DNA of 21,568 nucleotides from a virus. Under the pieces are notes generated by a model, which was not told where the DNA came from, ran no database searches, and was given only the letters and a program-made list of their open reading frames with translations. Both the position numbers and the translations under genes were made by a program. The first letter of the stretch is position 1. Every line of letters starts with the position of its first letter. Shown here piece after piece: positions 4,815 through 21,568 of this stretch. The stretch lies in the IMG/VR virus record IMGVR_UViG_3300025545_000026; one strand, written 5' to 3'.

Positions 4815-5948
4815 ATGTTTAAGGATATATCTCCAGACGATAGATCAATAAAAGAATTCAAAACTTATAAAAAATTCACCTTCACGCAAACAGATAGTGG
4901 AAGTGGTGTTTATGGAATAGAAGGTGTGAGTGGTAGTTTTCACAATTTCCTAACGGGATCAGCTGCATCTCAAAGTTATGGTGTATTTAATCAAGATTCT
5001 CAAAGTGTAGGTAAAGATTGGAAAACTTGGTATAGTGATGGAACTTTTTTTAAGATTCCATTATATTATTCATTAAATCATCTATATTATCAATACGATA
5101 AAACTTCAAATCCAAAATCAAATACTACAAGATTCCCAATTTATACTGTCACTGATTGGAGTAGAAAATGGCCACATGGCAGAGAAAGTTGGGGTTCAAT
5201 AAATCCACGACAACTTCATAATAAATTTAATGTTATAACAATTCCACAAGAATACTATGGCGAAGAAATAAAACCACACTCCGTAAAGATATTAGATGAT
5301 AGTGGAGACACCACTTTAGATTTAAGAGATGATGGAAACGGACAACTCTACGATTACCAGTATTCAGCAAGTTTTGCCGCTGGAACTCCTGGTGGAAGTC
5401 CTTTAACTGGAAGTTGCGTGGGAAATGTATTTTACGAACATGGACTTATCACAATTACAGATACAGGTTCTCTATATATTTCTGCAAGTATTGGTAGTGG
5501 TTCATCACCGTCTGGACAATATGATGGAACTGATGGATTTACTGTTACATTTCAAGCAACAAAAACTTCATATGAATATGAATATGTTTGTCATGTTCCA
5601 GAATTTGAATTTACTGGTACTACAAATCCAAGTGCAGTTAATGGACGAAGTGGAAGTATTTATGTCCCACAGGGTGCAAAATATATTTACGATGGAAACC
5701 TTCAAAATCCACAATATGAAAATACTATTGATTTAGTAATGCCACCAGCAAGTAGTTCATATAATTTATCATACGATTCTGGAACACATTATCAGAATTT
5801 CACAACCCATTCAGAATTTGGGACTTATATTACTAATATAGGTCTTTATAATGATGCAAATGAATTAATGGTTATAGCAAAATTATCAAATCCAATTAAA
5901 AACGATAAAGAATTGCCACTTTCATTTTTAATTAGATTTGATTCTTAA
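4815..5948 (+). CDS. Virion structural protein, divergent array B paralog, 377 aa
   Basis: SD GGGAG. EEIKPHSVKILDDSG...DDGNGQLYD core and C-terminal YITNIGLYNDANELMVIAKLSNPIK...IRFDS. Confidence 0.7.
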   Translation: MFKDISPDDRSIKEFKTYKKFTFTQTDSGSGVYGIEGVSGSFHNFLTGSAASQSYGVFNQDSQSVGKDWKTWYSDGTFFKIPLYYSLNHLYYQYDKTSNPKSNTTRFPIYTVTDWSRKWPHGRESWGSINPRQLHNKFNVITIPQEYYGEEIKPHSVKILDDSGDTTLDLRDDGNGQLYDYQYSASFAAGTPGGSPLTGSCVGNVFYEHGLITITDTGSLYISASIGSGSSPSGQYDGTDGFTVTFQATKTSYEYEYVCHVPEFEFTGTTNPSAVNGRSGSIYVPQGAKYIYDGNLQNPQYENTIDLVMPPASSSYNLSYDSGTHYQNFTTHSEFGTYITNIGLYNDANELMVIAKLSNPIKNDKELPLSFLIRFDS

Positions 5949-5984
5949 AGTATATTATAATTTATGATCCATGGGAGAAATACA

Positions 5985-6203
5985 GTGTATAATGACGATA
6001 GTGGAAAATTAGGAAAATTGTTATTGAATACTAATACTATTACAAAACGACAATTATCAAAGGCAATTCAAAATCAAATGAGGGGGGACGATAGAAAACT
6101 TGGTAAAATACTTGTTGAATTAAATTATTGTAATTATGATGATATAATAGACGTTTTATTAGATTTAAATCGTAAATTAATTAATTTGGATGATACGATT
6201 TAG
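5985..6203 (+). CDS. Stand-alone MshEN (T2SSE_N)-like protein, about 72 aa; candidate c-di-GMP-binding protein
   Basis: KLGKLLLNTNTITKRQLSKAIQNQ fits the 24-residue MshEN register, followed by a second KLGKILVELNY copy. The in-frame GTG at 5985 has a GGGAG SD 7 nt upstream and is preferred over the track's ATG at 5964. Confidence 0.7.
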   Translation: MYNDDSGKLGKLLLNTNTITKRQLSKAIQNQMRGDDRKLGKILVELNYCNYDDIIDVLLDLNRKLINLDDTI

Positions 6204-6213
6204 TGTATATATT

Positions 6214-6221
6214 ATATTTAT
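6214..6221 (+). promoter_or_regulatory. Recurrent intergenic motif ATATTTAT, candidate promoter
   Basis: 33 nt upstream of the 6255 start. Confidence 0.45.
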
Positions 6222-6254
6222 ATAAGGGAAATATAATATATTTGGAGAATGTAA

Positions 6255-6623
6255 GTGGATCAAGAAATAAAACTGTTAGTAGAAGATGTGTTAGGACATT
6301 ATGGGTGGATGGTGCTAATGATAGTAGCGGGATTTTTATTTAAAGAATCTATAACAAACGCTTTAGAGGCTATAATGATTTTTATTGGTAATGATTTTAA
6401 TAATGATGATGTGATTTATATTAGTGGTAGAGAGGCTCGTATAGTTAGAGTAGGAATAAGTAAAACTGTTTTTTATATGACTGACAGGGGAACTAAAATG
6501 ATTGTACCAAATGAAAAATTAAAAAATTTAACATTAGAAAAAATATTACCACACCGTATAGGACATAATTTATCAAAGGATGCGACACCAGCAGATACAT
6601 TAAGAAAAAAAACGAATGATTAA
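6255..6623 (+). CDS. Mini MscS-like membrane protein (TM segment plus beta-domain), 122 aa
   Basis: SD GGAG and GTG start. Hydrophobic GWMVLMIVAGFLF, then FNNDDVIYISGREARIVRVGISKTVF...MIVPNEKL, which follows the MscS pattern F..GD.I.i.g..G.V..Ig...T......vPN..L. Confidence 0.65.
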   Translation: MDQEIKLLVEDVLGHYGWMVLMIVAGFLFKESITNALEAIMIFIGNDFNNDDVIYISGREARIVRVGISKTVFYMTDRGTKMIVPNEKLKNLTLEKILPHRIGHNLSKDATPADTLRKKTND

Positions 6624-6999
6624 ATTAAAACATCTATTATTAGAACGAGTTGATTATATAGAATTTGCGGAACAGCTCGTAAAACAATATAAGTTAAAAT
6701 CAAAAGTAAAAATCACCAATGGTCCAGATAAAGCTGACTACGATGTGGATAGAGACACTATCAATATAAGATCATCTTATTCATCCGTTAAAGATTTTTA
6801 TATTACAGTTTTACATGAAATCGACCATGCTAAAGATGCCAAAAAGATGGGTAAGTCTAAATATAAAAAGGATTATGAAATGGAAACTGCTTATGCTATA
6901 GAAAAAGGTGGTCATCACCATGACGATAATAGATATGAAGAAAAGGCGGAGAATTGGGCACAGAAAGAATTTATTAGGGTGTGGAAAAATAAAATATAA
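6616..6999 (+). CDS. Zincin-type HExxH metallopeptidase-like protein, 127 aa
   Basis: TVLHEIDHAK at 6814-6828 and a downstream YEEKAE candidate third ligand. Overlaps the previous gene by 8 nt. Confidence 0.7.
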   Translation: MIKLKHLLLERVDYIEFAEQLVKQYKLKSKVKITNGPDKADYDVDRDTINIRSSYSSVKDFYITVLHEIDHAKDAKKMGKSKYKKDYEMETAYAIEKGGHHHDDNRYEEKAENWAQKEFIRVWKNKI

Positions 7000-8791: not shown

Positions 8792-11700
8792 TTGAAAGAG
8801 CAAGTTGTAAAAGTTCCATTTCGTAAACTAAAAAAAATATTTCATATATCCGATATACAAATCAGAAATTTGAAACGCCATCGTGAATATGAAGAAGTGT
8901 TTGAGCGGTTATATGAATCAATAAATAAACACAATGATGGTAATTCAATAGCTTATATCGGTGGTGATATAGCACATTCAAAAACTGAAATGTCACCTGA
9001 GTTGATTGACCAATTATCAAGGTTATTTAAGAATTTATCTGACATTTGTCCTACAATTATCATTGCGGGAAATCATGATTGTAATTTAAATAATTTATCA
9101 AGGATGGATTGTTTATCACCAATAGTAGATAACCTCAATCATCCAAACTTACATTATCTAAAAGATAGTGGAATATATAAATTCGCAGATGTTAGGTTTG
9201 TGGTGTGGGATGTATGGGATGAATCGAAAAATTTTATCAAAGCTACAGATGTAGAAGGTGATACTAAAATAGTATTATTTCATGGAACGGTTGATAAAAG
9301 TTCAACAGATTTAGGATTTAGATTGCCATCCGATGTTAAAATTAACAAATTCAAAGGTTACGATTTGGGATTACTGGGAGATATTCACCTTCGACAGCAT
9401 CTAAATAAGGAAGAGACGATAAGTTATTGTGGTAGCCTCGTACAACAAAACCATGGGGAAGGATTAGATCACGGTTATCTATTATGGGATGTTCCAAATA
9501 GAAAATCTGAATATATAAAAATACAAAATGATTACGGATATTATACTATGGATATTGATGATGGTATAGTTCCTGATGTACCCGATATGCCTCAAAAGGC
9601 CAGGTTAAGAGTAAGGGTATCTAACACTGACTCTGTTCAACTAAAGAAGGCCTTGACTGTAATACAGACGAAATACGGTATAAAGGAGATAGTTGTAAAT
9701 AGGACTGACAGATTGACAGAAAGAGTTCGTGGGGATAGAACCGTTGATGTTGGAGACGTTACAAATCCAGATTACCAGTTTAAATTAATTAGAGATTATT
9801 TAAAAAGAAACCACACAGTAAGTGATGAAATATTATTAGAAATAAAAGGAATAAATGATGATTTAAATAATCAACTTCCAGATGAAGATGTTTCTCGTAA
9901 TATAAATTGGAAATTAAAGAAATTTGAATTTTCCAATATGTTTAGTTATGGTGAAGATAATATAGTTGATTTTACTAAGTTAAATGGTATTATTGGATTA
10001 TTCGCACCAAACGCATCAGGAAAGTCAGCTCTTTTGGATTCTCTTTCTTTTTGTTTATTCGATACGTCAGATAGAGCATATAAAGCGGATAGAGTATTAA
10101 ATAACAAAAGAAATTATTTTAAATGTAAAGTTAATTTTGAAATAAACGAAACTGAATATTTTATTGAACGTAATGCAAAACGACAACGAAATGGGCATGT
10201 AAAAGTTGATGTTGATTTCTGGACAATTGATGATAGTGGAGATAAAATTTCCTTAAATGGAGATCAACGTAGAACCACAAATAATAACATATATAGAATT
10301 ATTGGAACATACGATGATTTTATTATAACATCTCTTTCTCTACAAAATAATTCAACTGTATTTATAGATAAAACTCAAAAAGAACGGAAAGATCTACTTG
10401 CCCAGTTCATGGGATTAAGTGCATTCGATAGTCTTTATACTTTAGCAAACGATGAAATGTCAGATATATCAGCAGTATTACGAGATTTTAATAAAACTAA
10501 TTATGACGTGGAATTGGCTGATATAGAAAAAGACAATACTCAATATAATGAAGTTCGTAGGGATTTAAAAAGTCAAAAGAAAACTCTTACAACAAGACGA
10601 ACAGAATTAAGTGAGCAAATATTAGGATTGACTAAAAAGTTAAGACCTATCGATGCATCCATTTCAGATATAGATAAGTTGAATGTGGAGTTAGATGGAT
10701 TTAATACTCAACTTGATGTAATAGATACGAGACTTGGCTCAGTTAAATCAGAAATGATTGTTTTACAATCAAATAATACTGAATTAACGAATAGAGCGAA
10801 ATCATATACTGATTCAAATGTGAATCAAAAGTATAACGATTTTATTAATTTGGAAAATAAACGACAGAAAATTCAGATAGAAATTGACAAGCTAAAAATT
10901 GAAGTTCGTAATAAATTAGACAAAATTGAAAAACTTGGTAATTTAGGATGGGATGAGAATTGTGAGTATTGTATGAACAATCCATTCACGTTAGATGCAA
11001 TGGAAACCAAAGAAAGATTAAATGGTGACAAGAAGTTAGCAAGTGAATATATTTCTAAGTTAGATGATATTGATGTTAAATTAAAAAAGATTGAAAACAT
11101 TCACGATGACAAAGTAAATTATGATGAAGTGATTGAATCATTAAAACAAATTGAAATAACGCAAAATAAATTAGAATCAGAAGAAGTTATTTTAAAAGAA
11201 AAAAAGATAAATGTACTTCATCAAATGTCAAATACTAATAATAAGATTGAAAAATACCATGAAAATGAAAATGATATAATCTATAATAATAAGACAGAAA
11301 TAGAAATTGAAAATTTAAAAAATTCAGTTGAAGATTTTGATTATCAAATAGAAACCATAGATAAAAAAATACAAACTATTCATGGTGAAATAAAGATAAA
11401 TCAAACAAAGAAAACGTCTATCATTGAAACAATGAATAGAGTGGAAGATTTAGAAAATAAATATGAAGCTTACGATTTTTACATGGACGCGGTAAAACGT
11501 GATGGTATTCCATATGAACTTATAGAGAAGGCACTCCCTGCAATTGAAGGTGAGGTTAATGATATTCTTGCTCAGATGGTAGAATTTGGTATTGTATTAG
11601 AAATGGATGGAAAGAATATAAATACATATATTACATATGATGAAGATAATGTTTGGCCACTTGAATTAAGTAGTGGAATGGAACGATTTGTTAGTTCATT

Positions 11701-11956
11701 AGCAATACGTGTTGGATTGATTAACGTGTGTAATTTACCACGAGCCAATTTTTTAGCAATAGATGAAGGGTTTGGAAATATGGATTCGGATAATTTGAAT
11801 TCTGTTTATATGCTATTTCAATATCTTAAAACTCAATTTCAATTTGTATTTATTGTTTCTCATATTGAATCAATGAGAGATGCCGTAGACAGTTTATTAG
11901 AAATATCTAAAATAGATGGATTTAGTCAGTTGAAATTACCATCTAAATTTAAATAG
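8792..11956 (+). CDS. Fused Mre11/SbcD nuclease - Rad50/SbcC ATPase (T4 gp47-gp46-like), 1054 aa
   Basis: Phosphoesterase motifs HISDIQ, GGDIAH, AGNHD, LFHG and LGDIH. From about aa 373: Walker A APNASGKS (10004-10027), Q-loop SLQNN, coiled coil with zinc hook CEYC (10961-10972), signature LSSGME (11666-11683), Walker B/D-loop AIDEGFGNMD and H-loop VSH. Confidence 0.93.
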   Translation: MKEQVVKVPFRKLKKIFHISDIQIRNLKRHREYEEVFERLYESINKHNDGNSIAYIGGDIAHSKTEMSPELIDQLSRLFKNLSDICPTIIIAGNHDCNLNNLSRMDCLSPIVDNLNHPNLHYLKDSGIYKFADVRFVVWDVWDESKNFIKATDVEGDTKIVLFHGTVDKSSTDLGFRLPSDVKINKFKGYDLGLLGDIHLRQHLNKEETISYCGSLVQQNHGEGLDHGYLLWDVPNRKSEYIKIQNDYGYYTMDIDDGIVPDVPDMPQKARLRVRVSNTDSVQLKKALTVIQTKYGIKEIVVNRTDRLTERVRGDRTVDVGDVTNPDYQFKLIRDYLKRNHTVSDEILLEIKGINDDLNNQLPDEDVSRNINWKLKKFEFSNMFSYGEDNIVDFTKLNGIIGLFAPNASGKSALLDSLSFCLFDTSDRAYKADRVLNNKRNYFKCKVNFEINETEYFIERNAKRQRNGHVKVDVDFWTIDDSGDKISLNGDQRRTTNNNIYRIIGTYDDFIITSLSLQNNSTVFIDKTQKERKDLLAQFMGLSAFDSLYTLANDEMSDISAVLRDFNKTNYDVELADIEKDNTQYNEVRRDLKSQKKTLTTRRTELSEQILGLTKKLRPIDASISDIDKLNVELDGFNTQLDVIDTRLGSVKSEMIVLQSNNTELTNRAKSYTDSNVNQKYNDFINLENKRQKIQIEIDKLKIEVRNKLDKIEKLGNLGWDENCEYCMNNPFTLDAMETKERLNGDKKLASEYISKLDDIDVKLKKIENIHDDKVNYDEVIESLKQIEITQNKLESEEVILKEKKINVLHQMSNTNNKIEKYHENENDIIYNNKTEIEIENLKNSVEDFDYQIETIDKKIQTIHGEIKINQTKKTSIIETMNRVEDLENKYEAYDFYMDAVKRDGIPYELIEKALPAIEGEVNDILAQMVEFGIVLEMDGKNINTYITYDEDNVWPLELSSGMERFVSSLAIRVGLINVCNLPRANFLAIDEGFGNMDSDNLNSVYMLFQYLKTQFQFVFIVSHIESMRDAVDSLLEISKIDGFSQLKLPSKFK

Positions 11957-12229: not shown

Positions 12230-15200
12230 TTGGGTGTATTAAAACGTAAAAACGAGTTATTAAACTTAAAAGACATAGATATATTAGTAGAAGATACTTT
12301 ATTTGATTCCAAGTATTTTAGGGTATTGGAATGCCCTACAATATTAACTCAAGGTAAAAGTAGTTTCCTAATCGGTGGATCATCCTATTTAAAGTCTGGT
12401 GTTGAATTAAAATTTGAGTTAATACATAACGGAACCGGTGAAGTAATATATACTCAAGCCGTTAGTGGTCATTTAGAAGCCGGTTCTCGTAGAGTTTCCA
12501 TTGAAATATATGAAGATGTTGAACCAGGTCCAGCAACTCTTTATATAGTTGGAGAATTAAATCCAGATTCTTCTGATGTAAATATACCAACAGAATGGCA
12601 AGGGATTTATAATGTAAGGTGGACTAAACAGATTACAATAAATGCTGCTGGTGTAAATACCGAACCTATATTTTTCTATAAACAACCAACTATAACAGTT
12701 TCAGAAATTTTTAAGGGATATTTAAATGTTCCAAGTGTAACTCCAATAACTTCTTCTTTACTTGTAAGTGGTCAACCGAGAGACGGTTTACAAAGTATTA
12801 CACCAACTCCAAATTCTGTAGCTGGTGATTATCCAGAACTTGATTTTAAACAAAAAGCAAATAAGGCTACAATAGAAGAAAATAAACCACTTATTAAATT
12901 AACTGGTAAAGGTGGTCATATTGGTTCACAAGGAAAATTATTAAAAACGAATTCTCCATCTCCAAATGATTATATAATTACAACTGATTCTTCCACATTA
13001 GTAACAAGTTTATATGTAGGTCAAGAAGTTACTATAACTTCACCACAAGTAGATGCTTCAAAATTCACATTAGAATCATATCACTCCATCCCTACTTATT
13101 TCAGTTCATCAGTAATGAAAGTATTGAATGAAACTTCATTTGTAACTTCTGATCTATTTTATGTTCACGATACGAGAACTTCTCCTGTAACTCTTGTACC
13201 AGCCCCTTTGGCATCTCAAACTATAAATACAAGTTACAAAGATATTTCAACTCAGACTACATCATCTATAAATTATGTTTCATTCGCTGATATGGAAATT
13301 TCCGATTTAAAAACATTTTCAGGAGATGTACATAAAGTAAAGATTTATTCAAAGGCTGAAGGTTCACTTGGGGACTTTGAAAAGATATTTGATTCTCCAA
13401 TAGAAAGTTCAGAAATATTATTTGATTCTAACGAAGATACTTCATTATCTAACATGGGGTATTGGATTGACCAGGCGAGAATAACAAAATACTGGGAATC
13501 GTATGAAGGAAATAATGGAGATGGGGGAAGTGGAACATTAACTTTTGATTCTTCTATTGTAATAGATTCTATGAAAATCTCTGGATCAAATAGAGAATAT
13601 GAAAGTGAACTACGTGTTCAAGTAAAAAATGATTTAAATTTTGTTGCTAACGGACTATACACTTTCCGTGCAAAACTTTACGGTACAAAGACGAATAAAA
13701 AGGATGTTAGTGGGAATGTAACTAAACGGGGTGATTTTCAAGTATACGTGGTAGGTGATGCATTTAATAAAGATACTACAGAAGCATCACATTGGGGAGT
13801 TCAAAAATTAGAAGTTCCAGAATTCCCAAGCGGAGTTGATAATTACGACTTTGGAACCATAGAAGGAAATTTCACAGCAGACAATACAGGAACAGGAAAA
13901 TTACAATTTAAAGTTCCGTCAGGTGAATGGTATATTTCAGATATTTCTGTAAAAGCAGCGTCAGATACTGCTTTTAATCCTGATTATGTAAAAGTAGTTG
14001 CACCGATACCACCATTGTACACCCGACCAGATAGTGTAAGATTTTTAGTGGAGTTTTATGATGTAAATAATAATATAGCCGACACGGTAATTTTTAGTGA
14101 TTTTTTTACATTTCAAGGAGAGAATACGTCCATTGGTGGAACTGATAATATATTAAGTGGTTCTATGTATATTGGTAATGCCATCGGTAGTGGTATTGAA
14201 ATGGCAGGTGTAAGTTCTGGCTTTATTCGTTCAATAGGATATGAAGGATTCACAAGTGCATCAGAAGGAACTGGTCAAGGTGGATTCTTAATGTGGTCCG
14301 GTTCAGTATTACCAGATAGTGGTGATTCTTATACGGGTGTTGGGTTAGAACTCGTAGCTACAAGTGAAAGTTATTTAAGATATAGAAGTAGTCCAAGTGA
14401 ATTAGATATTAGAGCCGATGCATTCTACGTAGGGAATCAAAACACTCAATACATTAGTGGTAGTGGTGGAAATATAGAAATTAGTTCATCTAATTTTCAT
14501 TTATCTGCAAGTGGTGATGTTACTATGACAGGAACTATTACAGCCACGGCAGGTAATATTGGTGATTGGATTATTAAAGATGGTAAATTAAGTGGTAGTA
14601 ACGCTACATTAGATGCAACTGGAGCGGCATTATATATGTCCGACAAGGGACCAGATACTGATAGTTCGGCTACATTTGATATTCAAAGAGATGAATATTA
14701 TATTGATTTTACACCAGCTGATCAAGGTAATACTACTAATTATTTTGTTAAGTTTGGACCTAATTTTGCAGTTGATAGTGATGGAGTATTGGTTGCGAGT
14801 GGAGCAGTTTTTGAGGGACAGATAACAGCTTCTACTGGACAAATTGGTGGAGCAGATATTGGAGATACATCATTAGAATATTCACCATATTGGAGAATCT
14901 CATCTTCAGCAAATACATCAGATCCAGTATCATTTATATCATCAAGTAGATTTAAAGTTTCTGCTGGTGGTAATATAACTGGTTCACAAGTATTGTTTAC
15001 GGGTGGCACTGTCGGCGGATTTGAATTATCATCAACACAAATAAATTCTACAAATGATAATTTAATATTAAAATCAAGTGGACATATAACAGGTTCACAA
15101 GTTAATTTTACTGGTGGTAAAATTGCAGGATTTGATATAAGTGGTACTAAATTGCAACAAGGAACTTCATTTTATTTAGATGGAGATAGTGGTGGTACGT

Positions 15201-18200
15201 ATTTTATATCATCTTCTAATTTTCAAGTAACACCGAGTGGTGATGTAAGTGGTTCACAAGTATTATTTACTGGTGGAAAAATTGCTGGTTGGACATTAGC
15301 TTCAGATAAATTTAGTGCTGGAACTGATGCTGATTATATTGCATTGATACCTGGTACAGGAATCCAAATGGGAGATTCAACATTTGGGGATGCTCCGTTT
15401 AGTGTTACTAACGCAGGTGTATTAAAGGCTGAATCTGGGACGATAGCAGGTTGGACTCTTGATTCAACAACATTAACCGGCGGTAATATGATTATTGATA
15501 AGGATGGTAGTGTTAAATCAAGTGGATATGCAAGTAATGTTGCTGGAAGTGGTTTTATTTTATCAGCCGTTTCGGGAGGATTTCTTGAAGTAGAAAATGC
15601 AAAAATTCGTGGAACACTTGCAACTGCCGTATTTGAGAAAGAAAGTGTAAGTGCGGTTGGTGGGCAATTATACATTGCTAATGCTACAACCTTAACTTCT
15701 TCAATACACCATCCTAAGAATTCTTATGTAGCAAGTGATACTACAATGTCGGTTGTGAATGTAACGGGGTTTGTAGAAGGTGAAATACTTTCTGCTAAAA
15801 GGGTCAGCACATCTGGATTTGCCACCGAATATATTTTAGTAGAATCTGCTTCCCGAAATAATGCAAGCAGTGCTACAGATTATAGTGGACAGATTTATGT
15901 TGAAAGAGGTTATGGTTCTGGAGTATCCGGTGATTCTGGGTCTTTAGGGGGCACACCAAGTTCTGCACTAACATATAGTGGAAGTCAAGTAATAGTTTCT
16001 ACTGGAAAAGTTGGAACTGGTTATATTAGATTAAATGCCAACCCAAATGACCAAACTACACCATATATTGATATTGTAGAAAGAAGTGGAAGTGGAATTT
16101 ATGATGTAGAATTAAAAGCAAGGCTTGGTGATTTGAGTGGACTATCAAGTGGATTGTTATATGGCGAAACAAGTCCTGGATTTGGTTTATTTAGTGAAAA
16201 TGTATTTCTACAGGGTTCTATTACGGCACAGACTGGTTCATTTACAGGAGCAGTGCATGTTGGTACTGGTGGGACAATGAAATTTGGCCAAAACGTTTCT
16301 TCAACAAATGATGGAATTTTTATTAATACAAACAATTTTTGGTATGATACAGGAAATTTCAAAGTTGGAGATGGAACTTCTTTTATTTCTTCATCGGGAG
16401 AAATTCAAACTGATAAATTTGAATTGAGAACTGATAGAGTAAAGGTTTCTTCTACATATGCTTCTATGAGTATTGGAAATGATCCAACTCTTACAAGTGG
16501 AACAGGAATATTCCTATCTGGTTCAGGTGAATTTAGATTGGGTGATGATGATGGTAATATTAAGTTTGTAAATGATAGTTTTTCTTTAACTGGAGCCGAT
16601 GTAAATATTAATGTTAATCAACTTAATATAAGTGCAAGTGGATTTACATTATCTTCACCACAGGCTTCAATGTCATTTGGAGATAGTCAAGAAATATTAC
16701 TTCATGCTACGGGTGGAACTGGTGGAGTACCGATTTTTAAATTAAGTGGTGGTGAAATATCAGCATCTAACTTTTTTGTTGATGCTGCTGGTAATTTAAC
16801 TGCCAGTAATGCTGATTTTCAAGGAATTATTTCTTCATCTGAGGCAAATATTGGTGGATGGACAGTTGATGACGGTGCTATATTTAAAGGAGTAACAAGA
16901 TTAACCAGTTCAGCTGAACCAGGATTATATATTGAAGATAGTTATGGTAATCCTATGGTATTGATTGCAGAGAAATCAATGTTTGAAATTGGATCTGCTC
17001 CTGATGAGGCAGGGAATGATAGTTTTGAATTAGATCCAGATAGTTCATTTACATCTGATGGATATCATATCGGTACAAGTGCATCTTCATTAGCAATCCC
17101 AAGTTGGTCATTTAGTTCAACTGGCCCTGTTTCACATTCTATTACAAAGAGAACTACTGATGCAGTATTTGGTGGTTTTAATGCCGCAGTTCTTGGTGAT
17201 TTTACATTTGATGTTGTTCATCCTGGTCAGTTTGCTCCGATTACATCGTTGAGTAGAAGTTTTGGAGATGCAAGTGCTTCATATTTAAGTGGAAATACAT
17301 ATGAAATTTCTCAAATAGTAAGTGCAAGCCAGGCCAATGGCCAAATTTGGGGAGCAGGAAATGTTGTTTCTTTTGCAGGAGTGGCAAAAATGTCTCATTC
17401 ATTTGCGGGAGTAGGAGTAAATAGAGGACTTCAAAAACAAAAATACAAAGTTGATTATTGGAACGGTTCGACTTGGACAACATTTATACCAAAATCAGGA
17501 AGTAGGGGAATGAACTCTGATGGATTTGCACACTATTCATTAGGTACAAGATATACTTCAATAGCAAGTGGGGGTGAATTACCAGTAAATACAGAAAAAT
17601 TAAGAATAGTACTTTCTGGTTCAATAAATCCAGATACTTCATATATTAAAACAACTTCTACATATCAAGGTAACGTTGTTGATCCTATGGCATCATTACC
17701 CGGCGAAACTAATGTTGATGATGTGGAAGAAACAATTATATTAAATACTGAAGAAGCTGCAAAATATCCATACACAGAAATAACATTTGATAATTTTAGA
17801 CTTAAACAATCTCAACCAAGAGTTGAATTGTCTCCAGATGGATTTTTATTATATGCATCAGATTCTTCTTATATTAAAATGACACCAGAAGGTATAGATT
17901 TTAGAGGTGGACAAGGATTTACTCAAACAAGTACTATGTTGTCAGGAGAAACTAATTCAGATAATGTAGATGTTTATGGTTCACTGGCAGCCCCATCTTT
18001 ACAAGCATATACGGCTGATACAGCCAACGTAAGTACTACTGGATTCGCAGGAAATGTTGGTGAGTATTCTATGGGTAATCACAGACATGCATTAGAATTT
18101 TCTACTGTAAATTCAATTGCAGGAACTTTTACAAATGGAGTTTGGAATTCAACTTTTGGAGCAACTGCTAATACTTTAATTAGTGGTAGTTGGCAAGGTT

Positions 18201-21200
18201 CTATTGACATTTCAACAGACACTAATTTAGTAGCTGGTACGAATATTACTTTAAGTGGTGATACATTAAATGTAGATGATGCATTCCTTAAAAATAATGC
18301 AAGTGACACCACAACTGGAACAATTACTGCCGGTGGATTCACAACTACTGGAACATTAGATATTAGTGGTGGAACATTAACATTAGCGAACAATCAAATT
18401 AGTGGAGATAAAGTTGAGGGTGGAACAATAGCAGCCACAACTATTACATCATTAACAACTGCTGGAATTACCGCAACGTCAAATATTGATATAGGGGCTT
18501 ATGAATTAAGAGCAAAAACACTAGAATCTGATGTAGCCACAGGAACAGCACCACTGACTATAGCCTCCACAACAAAAGTTACAAATTTAAACGCTGATTT
18601 ATTAGACGGTCAAACGGGAACATATTATACTGATTTTTCAAATATGGTAGTTTCTAATGATGAAATTCCAATAGCAAAACTTCAATATGATAATGTAAAT
18701 TTTGGTGGTGTTACTGTTACCCTCGGAGGATCAAATACTACACCATCATTTAACTTAACAGATGCTACTTCTCTTCCAATAATAGCTGGAACAACTGGAA
18801 CATTATCTGTAGCAAGAGGTGGAACTGGAGCAACATCTCTAAATAATTTAATTACACTTTCAACTCATACGACCGGAAACTATGTAGGAACAATTACAGG
18901 TGGTACTGGAATAGATTCTACAGGAGCAACAAGTGGAGAGGGAATCACTCATACATTATCCATTGATTTAAACGAATTAACAACAGAAACTGCTATAGCA
19001 CAAGGTGACTATATAGCAATGGTTGATGTTACTGATAACGGAAGTGGTAAAATAACATTTTCTAATTTAGAAGATAGAATTTTTGGAAATATAAGTGGTG
19101 ATATAAATATAGCAGCTGGTGGTGCTGTAACCATCCAAGCTAATTCAGTAGCACTTGGAACAGATACTACTGGTAATTATATGTCTGGGTTATCAGCTGG
19201 AAACCTAATTGATATAACACATACACCGTCAGAGGGTTCAACAGCAACTGTAAATGTGGATCTAAGTGAATTGGCAGATGGTACTGCAGATGTAGTCGGA
19301 TCTCAAGATGAGATAGTTTATTTAGATAATTCTACACAAAAACGAAAATTAATTAGTGAAATAAAATTAGGACAATTTAACAATGATCAAAGTTGGTCTT
19401 CAACTGTAGGAACTGTAACATCAATAGCAACGGCAGGCACCATCAACGGAATCACCTTAACCGGTGGAACGATAACAACATCTGGCACTATAACATTGGG
19501 TGGTACGTTATCAATAAATAATTCTGATTGGAGTGGCACTGATTTAGCTGTAACAAATGGTGGAACTGGAGCGTCTGATGCTTCAACCGCTAGAACCAAT
19601 CTTGGAGTTGCAATAGGAAGTGATGTTCAAGCATACGATGCTCAACTCGATACGATTTCTGGTTGGTCTGCAGCACAAACAACGACAATAGGAAATATTG
19701 GAACAGTAACTACAGCGGCTGACAAAATGATTTATACAACAGCAGCTGATACATTTGCAGAAACATCATTGACATCAACAGCAAGAACGCTATTAGATGA
19801 CTCATCAACATCAGCTATGAGAACTACATTAGGTATCGGTACTGGAGATTCTCCAACATTCACTGGATTAACTTTGACTGGTAATTTATCTGTAGCTGGA
19901 ACAATGACTACAACTACTACTAATGAGGTTGTTCTTGGAGATCAAATTTTAACATTGAACGGGGGCTCGGCTGCTGGTGATGGTGGAATATATGTAAATG
20001 ATGCCGCAACTGCACAGACTGGTTCATTACTTTGGGATGTAAGTACAGATAGATGGAAAGGTGGATTGAAAAGTGGTGAAGTTAATTTAGTAACTATTAG
20101 CTCAACCGATACACTTACAAACAAAACTTTAACTTCTCCAGATATTAATGGTGGTACTTGGAATGGTACAGTAGATGGAAACTCAACCGCAGCTGGTATT
20201 ACATGGGCAGATTTAGGTAGTGTTACTACTGTAGATATTAATGGTGGAACAATTAATGGTCTTGATACAGATTTAGCAGTAGCAGATGGTGGAACGGGAG
20301 CTTCAACTTTAACTGGAATGTTAAAAGGAAATGGAGCAAGTGCTTTTACAGGACAAACAAGTACCATAGGTCATGTTGCCTATTGGACTGATGCAAATAC
20401 TATTGGTGGTGAAGATTATTTAGACGTAACGAGAGGTGGAACAGGATTAGGAACGGTTGCCGCTAACAATATTCTTACTGGAAATGGAACGAGTGCTTTA
20501 ACTGCCGAAACTGGTCTTAAATTTGATGGTACTACTTTAACTATTAATAGTGTTGTAGCCGGTTCTAATACATTTACAAGTGGATTTGCGGGAGCTGGGT
20601 GGAGAATAACTGATACGGCCACAACAGCTGCAGAATTTGATAATTTAACAGTTCGTGGTACATTTAGTGTTTATGAATTATTGATTCACCAAACAAGGGC
20701 AACTAATGGGTCTGTTTGGATATCTAATTCATCCAAAGTAGATTCTGTAACAAGTAATGGTGGTGGGGATTATACATTATTCTTCGACACAGGAGAAAGT
20801 TATGGTCATACTTTTGCTGATGATGATTTAATAAGGTTTCAAAGATGGGATAATGCCAGTTCACAATTAGTTCAATCTAATTTAAGAGTATATTCATCCA
20901 CACAAGGTTCTTCTGTTTCTGCTTCATTAATTTCAGGAGGTGCACCTGCCGCTGGATATGATTTTGTAAGGGTTGGCAACTTAACTAATACTAACCGACA
21001 GGGTTCAGTATATTTAACTGCTGATGACAATGACGCTCCATTTATAGATGTTATTGATGGTGTTAGTGCAATTACTGGATCCAATGTTGGAATTTCTGGC
21101 TCTCGTACAAAAACAAGAATGGGTAAATTAGATGGTGTTACTTCTGCGAGATTTGGTACATTAAGTGGATATGGATTTTATGCAAGTGGTTCTGCTTATT

Positions 21201-21568
21201 TAGAAGGAAGTATTAATGCAAAATTCGGTAATATAGGAACTTGGGGGATTGGTGAGACTGCCATTAGTAGTTCAGATGGTATTATAACCCTTGACGCGTC
21301 AGCTAAAAGAATTACAATAAACGATGGAGATGATGATAGAATTTATTTAGGAGAAGTTGGCGGCACTACATACGGGTTAAAAATATTTAAGTCGGGTGGA
21401 AGCTATAATGATGCTGATCGTTTAGTAGAACTTGGATCTGGCGATAATATGATTGCAGGTTGGGATATTATGCCGGGAGCTTTGAAATCTGATAACGCCG
21501 GTGGTAGTGTAGCCCTATCTGCAAATAGTCAATCTCTAATGATTTTCACGGGTTCTATTGACAACGCA
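12230..21568 (+). CDS. Giant Ser/Gly/Thr-rich tail/baseplate-fibre protein, at least 3113 aa, 3'-truncated
   Basis: TTG start 7 nt after AGGAG, with an in-frame TGA upstream at 12203. Begins MGVLKRKNELLNLKDIDILVED. The frame is open wherever I translated it, and the track lists no ORF ending in this frame, so it has no stop in the window. Contains fibre motifs NLNADLLDG, LxVxxGGTG, ARTNLG and TLTNKTLTSP, and IAGW/IGGW repeats. Confidence 0.9.
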   Translation, partial: MGVLKRKNELLNLKDIDILVEDTLFDSKYFRVLECPTILTQGKSSFLIGGSSYLKSGVELKFELIHNGTGEVIYTQAVSGHLEAGSRRVSIEIYEDVEPGPATLYIVGELNPDSSDVNIPTEWQGIYNVRWTKQITINAAGVNTEPIFFYKQPTITVSEIFKGYLNVPSVTPITSSLLVSGQPRDGLQSITPTPNSVAGDYPELDFKQKANKATIEENKPLIKLTGKGGHIGSQGKLLKTNSPSPNDYIITTDSSTLVTSLYVGQEVTITSPQVDASKFTLESYHSIPTYFSSSVMKVLNETSFVTSDLFYVHDTRTSPVTLVPAPLASQTINTSYKDISTQTTSSINYVSFADMEISDLKTFSGDVHKVKIYSKAEGSLGDFEKIFDSPIESSEILFDSNEDTSLSNMGYWIDQARITKYWESYEGNNGDGGSGTLTFDSSIVIDSMKISGSNREYESELRVQVKNDLNFVANGLYTFRAKLYGTKTNKKDVSGNVTKRGDFQVYVVGDAFNKDTTEASHWGVQKLEVPEFPSGVDNYDFGTIEGNFTADNTGTGKLQFKVPSGEWYISDISVKAASDTAFNPDYVKVVAPIPPLYTRPDSVRFLVEFYDVNNNIADTVIFSDFFTFQGENTSIGGTDNILSGSMYIGNAIGSGIEMAGVSSGFIRSIGYEGFTSASEGTGQGGFLMWSGSVLPDSGDSYTGVGLELVATSESYLRYRSSPSELDIRADAFYVGNQNTQYISGSGGNIEISSSNFHLSASGDVTMTGTITATAGNIGDWIIKDGKLSGSNATLDATGAALYMSDKGPDTDSSATFDIQRDEYYIDFTPADQGNTTNYFVKFGPNFAVDSDGVLVASGAVFEGQITASTGQIGGADIGDTSLEYSPYWRISSSANTSDPVSFISSSRFKVSAGGNITGSQVLFTGGTVGGFELSSTQINSTNDNLILKSSGHITGSQVNFTGGKIAGFDISGTKLQQGTSFYLDGDSGGTYFISSSNFQVTPSGDVSGSQVLFTGGKIAGWTLASDKFSAGTDADYIALIPGTGIQMGDSTFGDAPFSVTNAGVLKAESGTIAGWTLDSTTLTGGNMIIDKDGSVKSSGYASNVAGSGFILSAVSGGFLEVENAKIRGTLATAVFEKESVSAVGGQLYIANATTLTSSIHHPKNSYVASDTTMSVVNVTGFVEGEILSAKRVSTSGFATEYILVESASRNNASSATDYSGQIYVERGYGSGVSGDSGSLGGTPSSALTYSGSQVIVSTGKVGTGYIRLNANPNDQTTPYIDIVERSGSGIYDVELKARLGDLSGLSSGLLYGETSPGFGLFSENVFLQGSITAQTGSFTGAVHVGTGGTMKFGQNVSSTNDGIFINTNNFWYDTGNFKVGDGTSFISSSGEIQTDKFELRTDRVKVSSTYASMSIGNDPTLTSGTGIFLSGSGEFRLGDDDGNIKFVNDSFSLTGADVNINVNQLNISASGFTLSSPQASMSFGDSQEILLHATGGTGGVPIFKLSGGEISASNFFVDAAGNLTASNADFQGIISSSEANIGGWTVDDGAIFKGVTRLTSSAEPGLYIEDSYGNPMVLIAEKSMFEIGSAPDEAGNDSFELDPDSSFTSDGYHIGTSASSLAIPSWSFSSTGPVSHSITKRTTDAVFGGFNAAVLGDFTFDVVHPGQFAPITSLSRSFGDASASYLSGNTYEISQIVSASQANGQIWGAGNVVSFAGVAKMSHSFAGVGVNRGLQKQKYKVDYWNGSTWTTFIPKSGSRGMNSDGFAHYSLGTRYTSIASGGELPVNTEKLRIVLSGSINPDTSYIKTTSTYQGNVVDPMASLPGETNVDDVEETIILNTEEAAKYPYTEITFDNFRLKQSQPRVELSPDGFLLYASDSSYIKMTPEGIDFRGGQGFTQTSTMLSGETNSDNVDVYGSLAAPSLQAYTADTANVSTTGFAGNVGEYSMGNHRHALEFSTVNSIAGTFTNGVWNSTFGATANTLISGSWQGSIDISTDTNLVAGTNITLSGDTLNVDDAFLKNNASDTTTGTITAGGFTTTGTLDISGGTLTLANNQISGDKVEGGTIAATTITSLTTAGITATSNIDIGAYELRAKTLESDVATGTAPLTIASTTKVTNLNADLLDGQTGTYYTDFSNMVVSNDEIPIAKLQYDNVNFGGVTVTLGGSNTTPSFNLTDATSLPIIAGTTGTLSVARGGTGATSLNNLITLSTHTTGNYVGTITGGTGIDSTGATSGEGITHTLSIDLNELTTETAIAQGDYIAMVDVTDNGSGKITFSNLEDRIFGNISGDINIAAGGAVTIQANSVALGTDTTGNYMSGLSAGNLIDITHTPSEGSTATVNVDLSELADGTADVVGSQDEIVYLDNSTQKRKLISEIKLGQFNNDQSWSSTVGTVTSIATAGTINGITLTGGTITTSGTITLGGTLSINNSDWSGTDLAVTNGGTGASDASTARTNLGVAIGSDVQAYDAQLDTISGWSAAQTTTIGNIGTVTTAADKMIYTTAADTFAETSLTSTARTLLDDSSTSAMRTTLGIGTGDSPTFTGLTLTGNLSVAGTMTTTTTNEVVLGDQILTLNGGSAAGDGGIYVNDAATAQTGSLLWDVSTDRWKGGLKSGEVNLVTISSTDTLTNKTLTSPDINGGTWNGTVDGNSTAAGITWADLGSVTTVDINGGTINGLDTDLAVADGGTGASTLTGMLKGNGASAFTGQTSTIGHVAYWTDANTIGGEDYLDVTRGGTGLGTVAANNILTGNGTSALTAETGLKFDGTTLTINSVVAGSNTFTSGFAGAGWRITDTATTAAEFDNLTVRGTFSVYELLIHQTRATNGSVWISNSSKVDSVTSNGGGDYTLFFDTGESYGHTFADDDLIRFQRWDNASSQLVQSNLRVYSSTQGSSVSASLISGGAPAAGYDFVRVGNLTNTNRQGSVYLTADDNDAPFIDVIDGVSAITGSNVGISGSRTKTRMGKLDGVTSARFGTLSGYGFYASGSAYLEGSINAKFGNIGTWGIGETAISSSDGIITLDASAKRITINDGDDDRIYLGEVGGTTYGLKIFKSGGSYNDADRLVELGSGDNMIAGWDIMPGALKSDNAGGSVALSANSQSLMIFTGSIDNA

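Follow-up and report, generated by a model that had tools for sequence, protein, structure and literature searches.

A phage-encoded stand-alone MshEN_N-type domain and the marine phage membrane-protein family from which it derives

MshEN ranks among the principal folds of c-di-GMP receptors, and no viral or phage protein of this type is described in the literature searched. In the MshEN_N subdomain of MshE (PDB 5HTL) and in the GSPII-B domain of Thermus thermophilus PilF (PDB 8PDK), two tandem 24-residue motifs form a four-helix unit of ∼53 residues, and the isolated N-subdomain of MshE (residues 1–62) binds c-di-GMP alone (PMC12002112). PilF GSPII-B carries Lys (K167) at position 1 of motif I and has a KD of 6 nM, which becomes 25-fold weaker in K167R. 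Leu is tolerated at position 1 of motif II, and the Q218E variant, in which the Gln of motif II is lost, retains a KD of 460 nM (PMC11731258). The GSPII-A domain of PilF (PDB 9G1W) is non-binding and needs S39R and R62Q (with H33Q) for c-di-GMP binding, while Ala at the position equivalent to G40 of the protein described below costs GSPII-A constructs 10-fold in affinity (PMC12002112). MshEN-like domains that do not bind c-di-GMP are also known as protein-binding modules, as seen for the N-terminal of Xanthomonas citri PilB with PilZ (PMC8389850).

The 72-aa phage protein described here shares with MshE and PilF GSPII-B the two tandem motifs, the four-helix unit, the LG dipeptides, both Leu/Ile clusters and the Gln of motif I, and its Lys at motif-I position 1 corresponds to PilF K167. 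Unlike these proteins it is phage-encoded, has neither MshEN_C nor an ATPase domain, carries Asn for Gly at both turns and ends motif II with Leu; its spacer has 6 residues as opposed to 5 in MshE. With PilF GSPII-A it has the fold and a good motif I in common, but it has Lys instead of Ser at motif-II position 1 and Gln in motif I where GSPII-A has His, and it lacks the C-subdomain that blocks the binding site in GSPII-A.

The 72-aa protein and its ligand positions

The window, by which we mean the whole 21,568-nucleotide stretch of phage DNA analyzed, has a GC content of 33%. Its primase shares 45% identity with the primase of Flavobacterium phage immuto, the sole host hint by homology, and a single tRNA gene turned up across 15 related loci. 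The right part of the window holds a Mre11/Rad50-type fusion protein of 1054 aa (8792–11956; best phage matches to Microcystis phage Mel-JY01 and a 484-kb uncultured phage, ∼40% identity), which precedes a giant ORF of more than 3113 aa (12230–21568) that is open at the window end and has no Pfam match.

The open reading frame of interest lies on the + strand at 5985–6203 and begins with GTG, 6 nt downstream of a GGGAGA ribosome site (5973–5978). Public gene callers instead start at the ATG at 5964, giving 79 aa. We prefer the 72-aa form since both the ribosome site and the GTG are conserved in the sister locus L006, and since a second stand-alone lineage (L002) also has a GTG start, behind its own GGAGG site. 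The next ORF is in the same frame, and read-through or fusion with it is ruled out by three in-frame stops (TAG, TAA, TAA) in between. A promoter and terminator scan gave nothing beyond shuffled expectation, and an intergenic motif search stayed at chance level.

By curated HMM, family profile and predicted fold, the 72-aa protein is assigned as a genuine MshEN_N-type domain. Residues 8–58 match positions 1–50 of the 53-position curated NCBIfam model NF053729 (cyclic di-GMP-binding domain, MshE-related) with 44.6 bits (E 9.2e-12), above the cut-off of 38 bits. Searched as a single sequence against PDB sequences with phmmer, the protein found PilB N-termini (E 9.5e-5), and a profile of 35 family members aligned both motifs with Geobacter PilB (2.7e-12), Thermus PilF (6e-12) and Vibrio cholerae MshE (4.5e-6). 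The AF2 model, made with the family alignment as input, is a four-helix domain with a mean pLDDT of 82.8. In a Foldseek search of the PDB with this model, ranks 1–7 were taken by 5HTL (MshE with c-di-GMP) and five c-di-GMP-bound PilF GSPII-B structures (8PDK and point mutants), with TM scores of ∼0.6 and rmsd of 1.2–2.1 Å over 50–55 residues (5HTL: TM 0.64, 2.1 Å, 55 columns); the E-values are weak, as the domain is small. Pfam PF05157 did not match the 72-aa protein, probably because this 90-position model is longer than the 53-residue N subdomain, and the one Pfam match was a weak one to DUF4388, with which it has a short repeat in common. PHROGs and PADLOC gave no match. As the protein stops at residue 72, the MshEN_C subdomain is absent.

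Motif I (residues 8–31, 6006–6077, + strand) contains K8, L9, G10, L24, I28 and Q31, and all six of these ligand positions are binding-compatible according to the family profile and column comparison, with residue roles taken from PMC5013675 and PMC11731258. It is followed by the 6-residue spacer MRGDDR (6078–6095, +), where the family alignment keeps G34 throughout and mostly has Arg at the position of R37. Motif II (residues 38–61, 6096–6167, +) reads K38, L39, G40, K41, N47, I54, L58 and L61 when compared column by column with the family. Here the consensus Gln of the last position is lost to Leu61, and E41K reverses the charge at a position that hardly varies in the family. Relative to the MshEN motif RLGxx(L/V/I)(L/V/I)xxG(L/V/I)(L/V/I)xxxxLxxxLxxQ, the deviations are thus R1K and G10N, each occurring twice, and Q24L in motif II.

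A first-pass annotation, made from the sequence alone, had read this ORF as a stand-alone MshEN domain of two tandem motifs with a 6-residue linker and with Lys at position 1 and Asn at position 10 of both copies. The ORF is real, the motif coordinates and the remaining residue list are exact, and the domain assignment is borne out by the HMM, profile and Foldseek matches above; only the Leu that ends motif II had gone unmentioned. The further proposal that the paired substitutions may shift ligand specificity finds no support, as Lys also occupies position 1 in the tightly binding PilF GSPII-B (PMC11731258), while at position 10 of motif I the full-length phage relatives have Asp (33 of 33) and Geobacter PilB has Asn.

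Column comparison finds 11 of the 12 ligand positions compatible with c-di-GMP binding. Motif I is complete, with G10, L24 and Q31 the same throughout the phage family; in motif II, K38, L39, G40, I54 and L58 are compatible and L61 stands in place of Gln. Among the full-length members, Thr or Ser predominates at motif-II position 1, and position 24 varies. The family motif II therefore counts against binding, as these are the same two positions (S39 and R62) that are deficient in non-binding PilF GSPII-A (PMC12002112). Going by these residues, c-di-GMP binding by the window protein is plausible, although we regard it as somewhat less probable than its absence.

The same comparison bears on a different role, in which the protein would have no nucleotide ligand and would act as a protein-binding decoy. 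Its target could be a phage sensor such as H-NOX, or the host protein that pairs with PilB/GspE-type N-termini (a platform protein or an adaptor of the PilZ type); titration of the partner would, for instance, disturb pilus or secretion function. The first-pass annotation had likewise named a dominant-negative mimic of a host ATPase N-terminus as an alternative. PilB N-termini are its closest sequences, X. citri PilB-N with PilZ (PDB 7lkm) appears at Foldseek rank 22, and the family carries an invariant TKRQ patch of its own outside the c-di-GMP motif. The degeneration of motif II at positions that abolish binding in PilF GSPII-A (PMC12002112) also fits such a role. However, motif I is a perfect ligand half-site, and the invariance of Q31 and G10 would be hard to explain without a nucleotide. 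We consider a decoy of this kind unlikely, though well worth keeping in mind.

The parent family and its envelope module

An exhaustive HMMER search identified 424 relatives, which fall into two sets: cellular multi-repeat GSPII proteins with ∼33% identity, and a closer set (45–60% identity) whose members carry the domain at their very N-terminus. Scanning IMG/VR gave 112 viral contigs, of which 80 were taken into a locus comparison; locus counts over 85 include five short metagenome contigs as well. Nearly all of the 80 contigs, which are marine, encode a relative of ∼200 aa (186–236 aa). These full-length relatives are laid out as MshEN_N, an acidic/proline-rich linker, one transmembrane (TM) helix and, on the periplasmic side, an invariant EYPSxPxGxNWPRSYEQYK motif followed by a coiled coil at the C-terminus, and the AF2 model of the full-length protein of L006 has the family layout (MshEN_N, linker, TM helix, coiled coil). 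One shorter relative, P0052 (147 aa), combines MshEN_N and linker with a C-terminal HEIDHLSG... that resembles the end of peptide deformylase, and may be a deletion fusion or an assembly chimera.

The window protein resembles the full-length proteins (L006 9983–10558; P0082 and P0084) in a homologous domain of 45–68% identity, in the ITKRQL signature and in its genomic slot after tail-like genes and, for L006, also in ribosome site and start codon. It differs from them by the absence of the linker, the TM helix, the periplasmic domain with its EYPSxPxGxNWPRSYEQYK motif and coiled coil, and the barrel-like and thioredoxin-like partner genes at its flanks. The first-pass description of a domain with no output domain is hence right for this phage but not for the family, where a TM helix and periplasmic coiled coil within a conserved envelope module are the norm. 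Its remark that no characterized phage example was known still stands, both for the literature searched and for the cultured-phage collection, which, queried with a full-length relative, contained no full-length protein and no barrel. None of the cellular genomes searched contained the ITKRQL family.

The module around the full-length gene is well conserved. A 428-aa signal-peptide protein with a barrel-like C-terminal end is encoded upstream of the MshEN gene in 79 of the 85 loci, and a signal-peptide protein with a thioredoxin fold directly downstream in 77. The latter has no CxxC cysteines and is, as judged from its sequence, a redox-dead periplasmic protein. The usual occupant between the barrel gene and the MshEN gene is a ∼200-aa lipoprotein gene, and a small membrane protein with an MscS beta-domain is often the first gene of the module (homologs in 21/85 loci). 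Two of the lipoproteins (L015:9336–9938 and L024:9373–9981) have lipoboxes ending in ...FSC or ...PSC with an acidic run right behind the Cys, which we take to resemble a Bacteroidota surface-export signal, a weak hint at the host. No lysozyme, amidase or peptidase families were found among 92 neighboring ORFs within ∼4.5 kb in 12 loci. Module order is conserved in nearly all of the 85 loci; the window and loci L002–L004 are reduced.

Several other neighbors recur. In L026 (9438–9986) and L077 (9432–9983), an H-NOX gene (Pfam HNOB, E ∼4e-45) abuts the start of the MshEN gene in the slot usually held by the lipoprotein. Genes for Popeye-type (POPDC) cNMP-binding membrane proteins are found nearby in 31 of the 85 loci; the one in L015 (11008–11664, 218 aa) exemplifies their position one or two genes 3′ of the module. 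Prepilin-type genes of 130–155 aa with a KGFTLIEL leader (Pfam N_methyl) lie in tandem 2–3.5 kb downstream in L007 (12813–14177), L024 (11830–13100) and L076 (12965–13408). The pilin and H-NOX neighbors favor the protein-binding decoy considered above, but this window contains neither a pilin nor an H-NOX gene, which speaks against it. A role of the parent domain in signal input, whether from a nucleotide or from a sensor protein, fits this context, since a cytoplasmic domain is placed on a protein that would reach the periplasm, among envelope, H-NOX, Popeye and prepilin neighbors.

The identity of the parent also bears on whether the window protein is an anti-defense sponge for immune cyclic nucleotides (CBASS-type cGAMP or others). 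Like Acb2, Tad1, Tad2 and Acb4 it is a small, soluble, phage-encoded protein that could act by sequestering a nucleotide, and MshEN does bind cGAMP weakly. However, the KD for cGAMP is given as 3.3e-4 M, and c-di-AMP is not bound (PMC5013675). The known sponges are oligomers targeting immune signals, whereas the window protein comes from an envelope-module membrane protein and not from an anti-defense gene. The PADLOC defense-system models were unmatched, PHROG and Pfam gave no sponge- or defense-related match either, and no relation in sequence or fold to the four sponges was found. We regard a sponge of this type as very improbable.

Deletion and constraint in the stand-alone lineages

The window and L006 are collinear over ∼6 kb to the left and ∼7 kb to the right of the module, and the flanking 377-aa gene has 91% aa identity. 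The right border is a conserved zincin gene (127 aa, 6616–6999; Pfam MPTase-PolyVal, with a weak PHROG ‘anti-restriction' match), found in L006 and L002 as well as in the window. In L006, the interval from the 377-aa gene to the zincin gene encodes the barrel-like protein (428 aa), a 127-aa protein, the MshEN-TM-coiled-coil protein (191 aa) and the thioredoxin-like protein (138 aa). The same interval of the window holds the MshEN N-domain ORF, 71% identical to L006 at the nucleotide level over 5971–6151, followed by an MscS-like gene and nothing else. This gene (6255–6623, +) encodes a one-pass membrane protein of 122 aa with an MscS beta-domain (Pfam PF00924, E 2.4e-5) and is the only other module gene remaining.

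Both deletion junctions can be located. Upstream (5949–5984, +, including the ribosome site), L006 has ∼1.8 kb with the genes of the barrel-like and 127-aa proteins, and blastn collinearity stops at 5944 of the window (8150 of L006) and restarts at 5971 (9969). Downstream (6152–6254, +), the linker, TM helix, coiled coil and thioredoxin-like gene that L006 has are replaced by a tail specific to this lineage (starting around residue 57: VLLDLNRKLINLDDTI), the stop and a 51-nt spacer; the match to L006 breaks off at 6151 and is back at 6615.

A second stand-alone lineage, P0017 (70 aa), is found in loci L002–L004, which have the same left flank as the window and the zincin gene directly after the stand-alone ORF. 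Between the 377-aa gene and the MshEN ORF (L002:1012–1115), a 30-codon relic of the 3′ end of the barrel gene (ERYLYYWERFDYGIEFGSNYQFLGF*) remains as a deletion scar, and P0017 retains the first residues of the linker (HEE...) ahead of its stop. The end points of the deletions differ between the two lineages on both sides, and the four-helix domain and ribosome site are spared in both.

From the collinearity with L006, the common ribosome site and GTG start, and the barrel relic and linker start in L002–L004, it follows that the stand-alone state is derived by deletion from a ∼200-aa phage inner-membrane protein. By the same comparison, the window protein is to be seen not as a purpose-built sponge, but as a secondary reduction of a widespread, undescribed family of phage membrane proteins. 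T55I, which is present in both stand-alone forms, suggests a common origin.

The two stand-alone forms compared with each other give a dN/dS of 0.42 at a dS of 0.54 (53 codons, hence weak statistics), against 0.14 for each of them compared with full-length L006. Values for the flanking genes are 0.06–0.08 relative to L006, and 0.32 for the zincin gene relative to L002. At the 19 columns that are at least 90% conserved in the 33 full-length members, those members deviate at none or one, always conservatively. The window protein deviates at three (D17N, E41K and T55I) and P0017 at two (T55I and G40R, the latter at a ligand-contact glycine). The constraint on the stand-alone forms thus appears, at the level of these codons, to be weakened or changed, but not gone.

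Such figures are also what a slowly decaying relic might give, that is, an ORF that the deletions happened to spare, that has hardly any function, if any, and that is being lost. The partner genes and the output part have all disappeared, dN/dS is raised, and columns that are invariant elsewhere have taken non-conservative changes, G40R of the sister lineage among them. The window allele with identical synteny does occur in at least 72 blocks of public assemblies, but this wide sampling is uninformative on selection because the 11 contigs compared are all ∼100% identical and hence clonal. On the other hand, two lineages ∼0.5 apart in dS both retain an intact ORF with its ribosome site and start codon, exactly the four-helix domain was spared twice despite the different end points, and dN/dS has not reached 1. 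Dead DNA is usually lost fast from phage genomes, which we also count against a relic. Decay of this kind seems to us an unlikely explanation, yet one to be taken seriously.

Possible role of the free domain

The reading we favor, albeit tentatively and at less than even confidence, is that the free domain still binds the cytoplasmic ligand of its parent, with c-di-GMP as the first candidate, and that its action is limited to buffering this ligand or competing for it. The gene from which it descends is found widely among uncultured marine phages. That gene encodes MshEN_N, a disordered acidic/proline-rich linker, the TM helix, the EYPSxPxGxNWPRSYEQYK motif and the coiled coil, and its module partners are an outer-membrane-barrel-like protein, the redox-dead periplasmic thioredoxin-like protein and, in most cases, a lipoprotein. 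In this phage lineage, deletions took the barrel gene, the membrane and periplasmic part and the thioredoxin-like gene, and left the ribosome site, the start codon and the four-helix domain. On the favored reading, the 72-aa protein would be the cut-loose cytoplasmic signal-input domain of a phage inner-membrane protein, which would most likely have kept the ligand of the parent domain. If this is c-di-GMP, the leading candidate, its site may be formed, as in MshE and PilF, by the N-terminal ends of helices 1 and 3 together with the Leu/Ile clusters on helices 2 and 4. In a protein that has no output domain, binding could lead only to buffering of, or competition for, the ligand and not to signal transduction. 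The narrower proposal that the 72-aa protein buffers or drains the c-di-GMP pool of the host during infection is more doubtful.

Binding of c-di-GMP by the mini-protein, or by the membrane-bound proteins from which it stems, would mean that phages abundant in the ocean read or buffer a lifestyle signal of their hosts. In that event, the parent module (barrel, lipoprotein, MshEN-TM-coiled coil and dead thioredoxin, often with H-NOX, cNMP-binding or pilin genes) would be a phage envelope device gated by a signal. Nature offers three forms, i.e., the full-length protein, the stand-alone form of the window and the stand-alone form with G40R, which amount to a ready-made experiment. If the mini-protein binds nothing, it is still a clear case of a phage accessory module dismantled by deletion. 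If it does drain c-di-GMP, it would be the first viral second-messenger binder of the MshEN type, and the parent family would couple the c-di-GMP, NO or cNMP state of the host to an envelope apparatus built by the phage.
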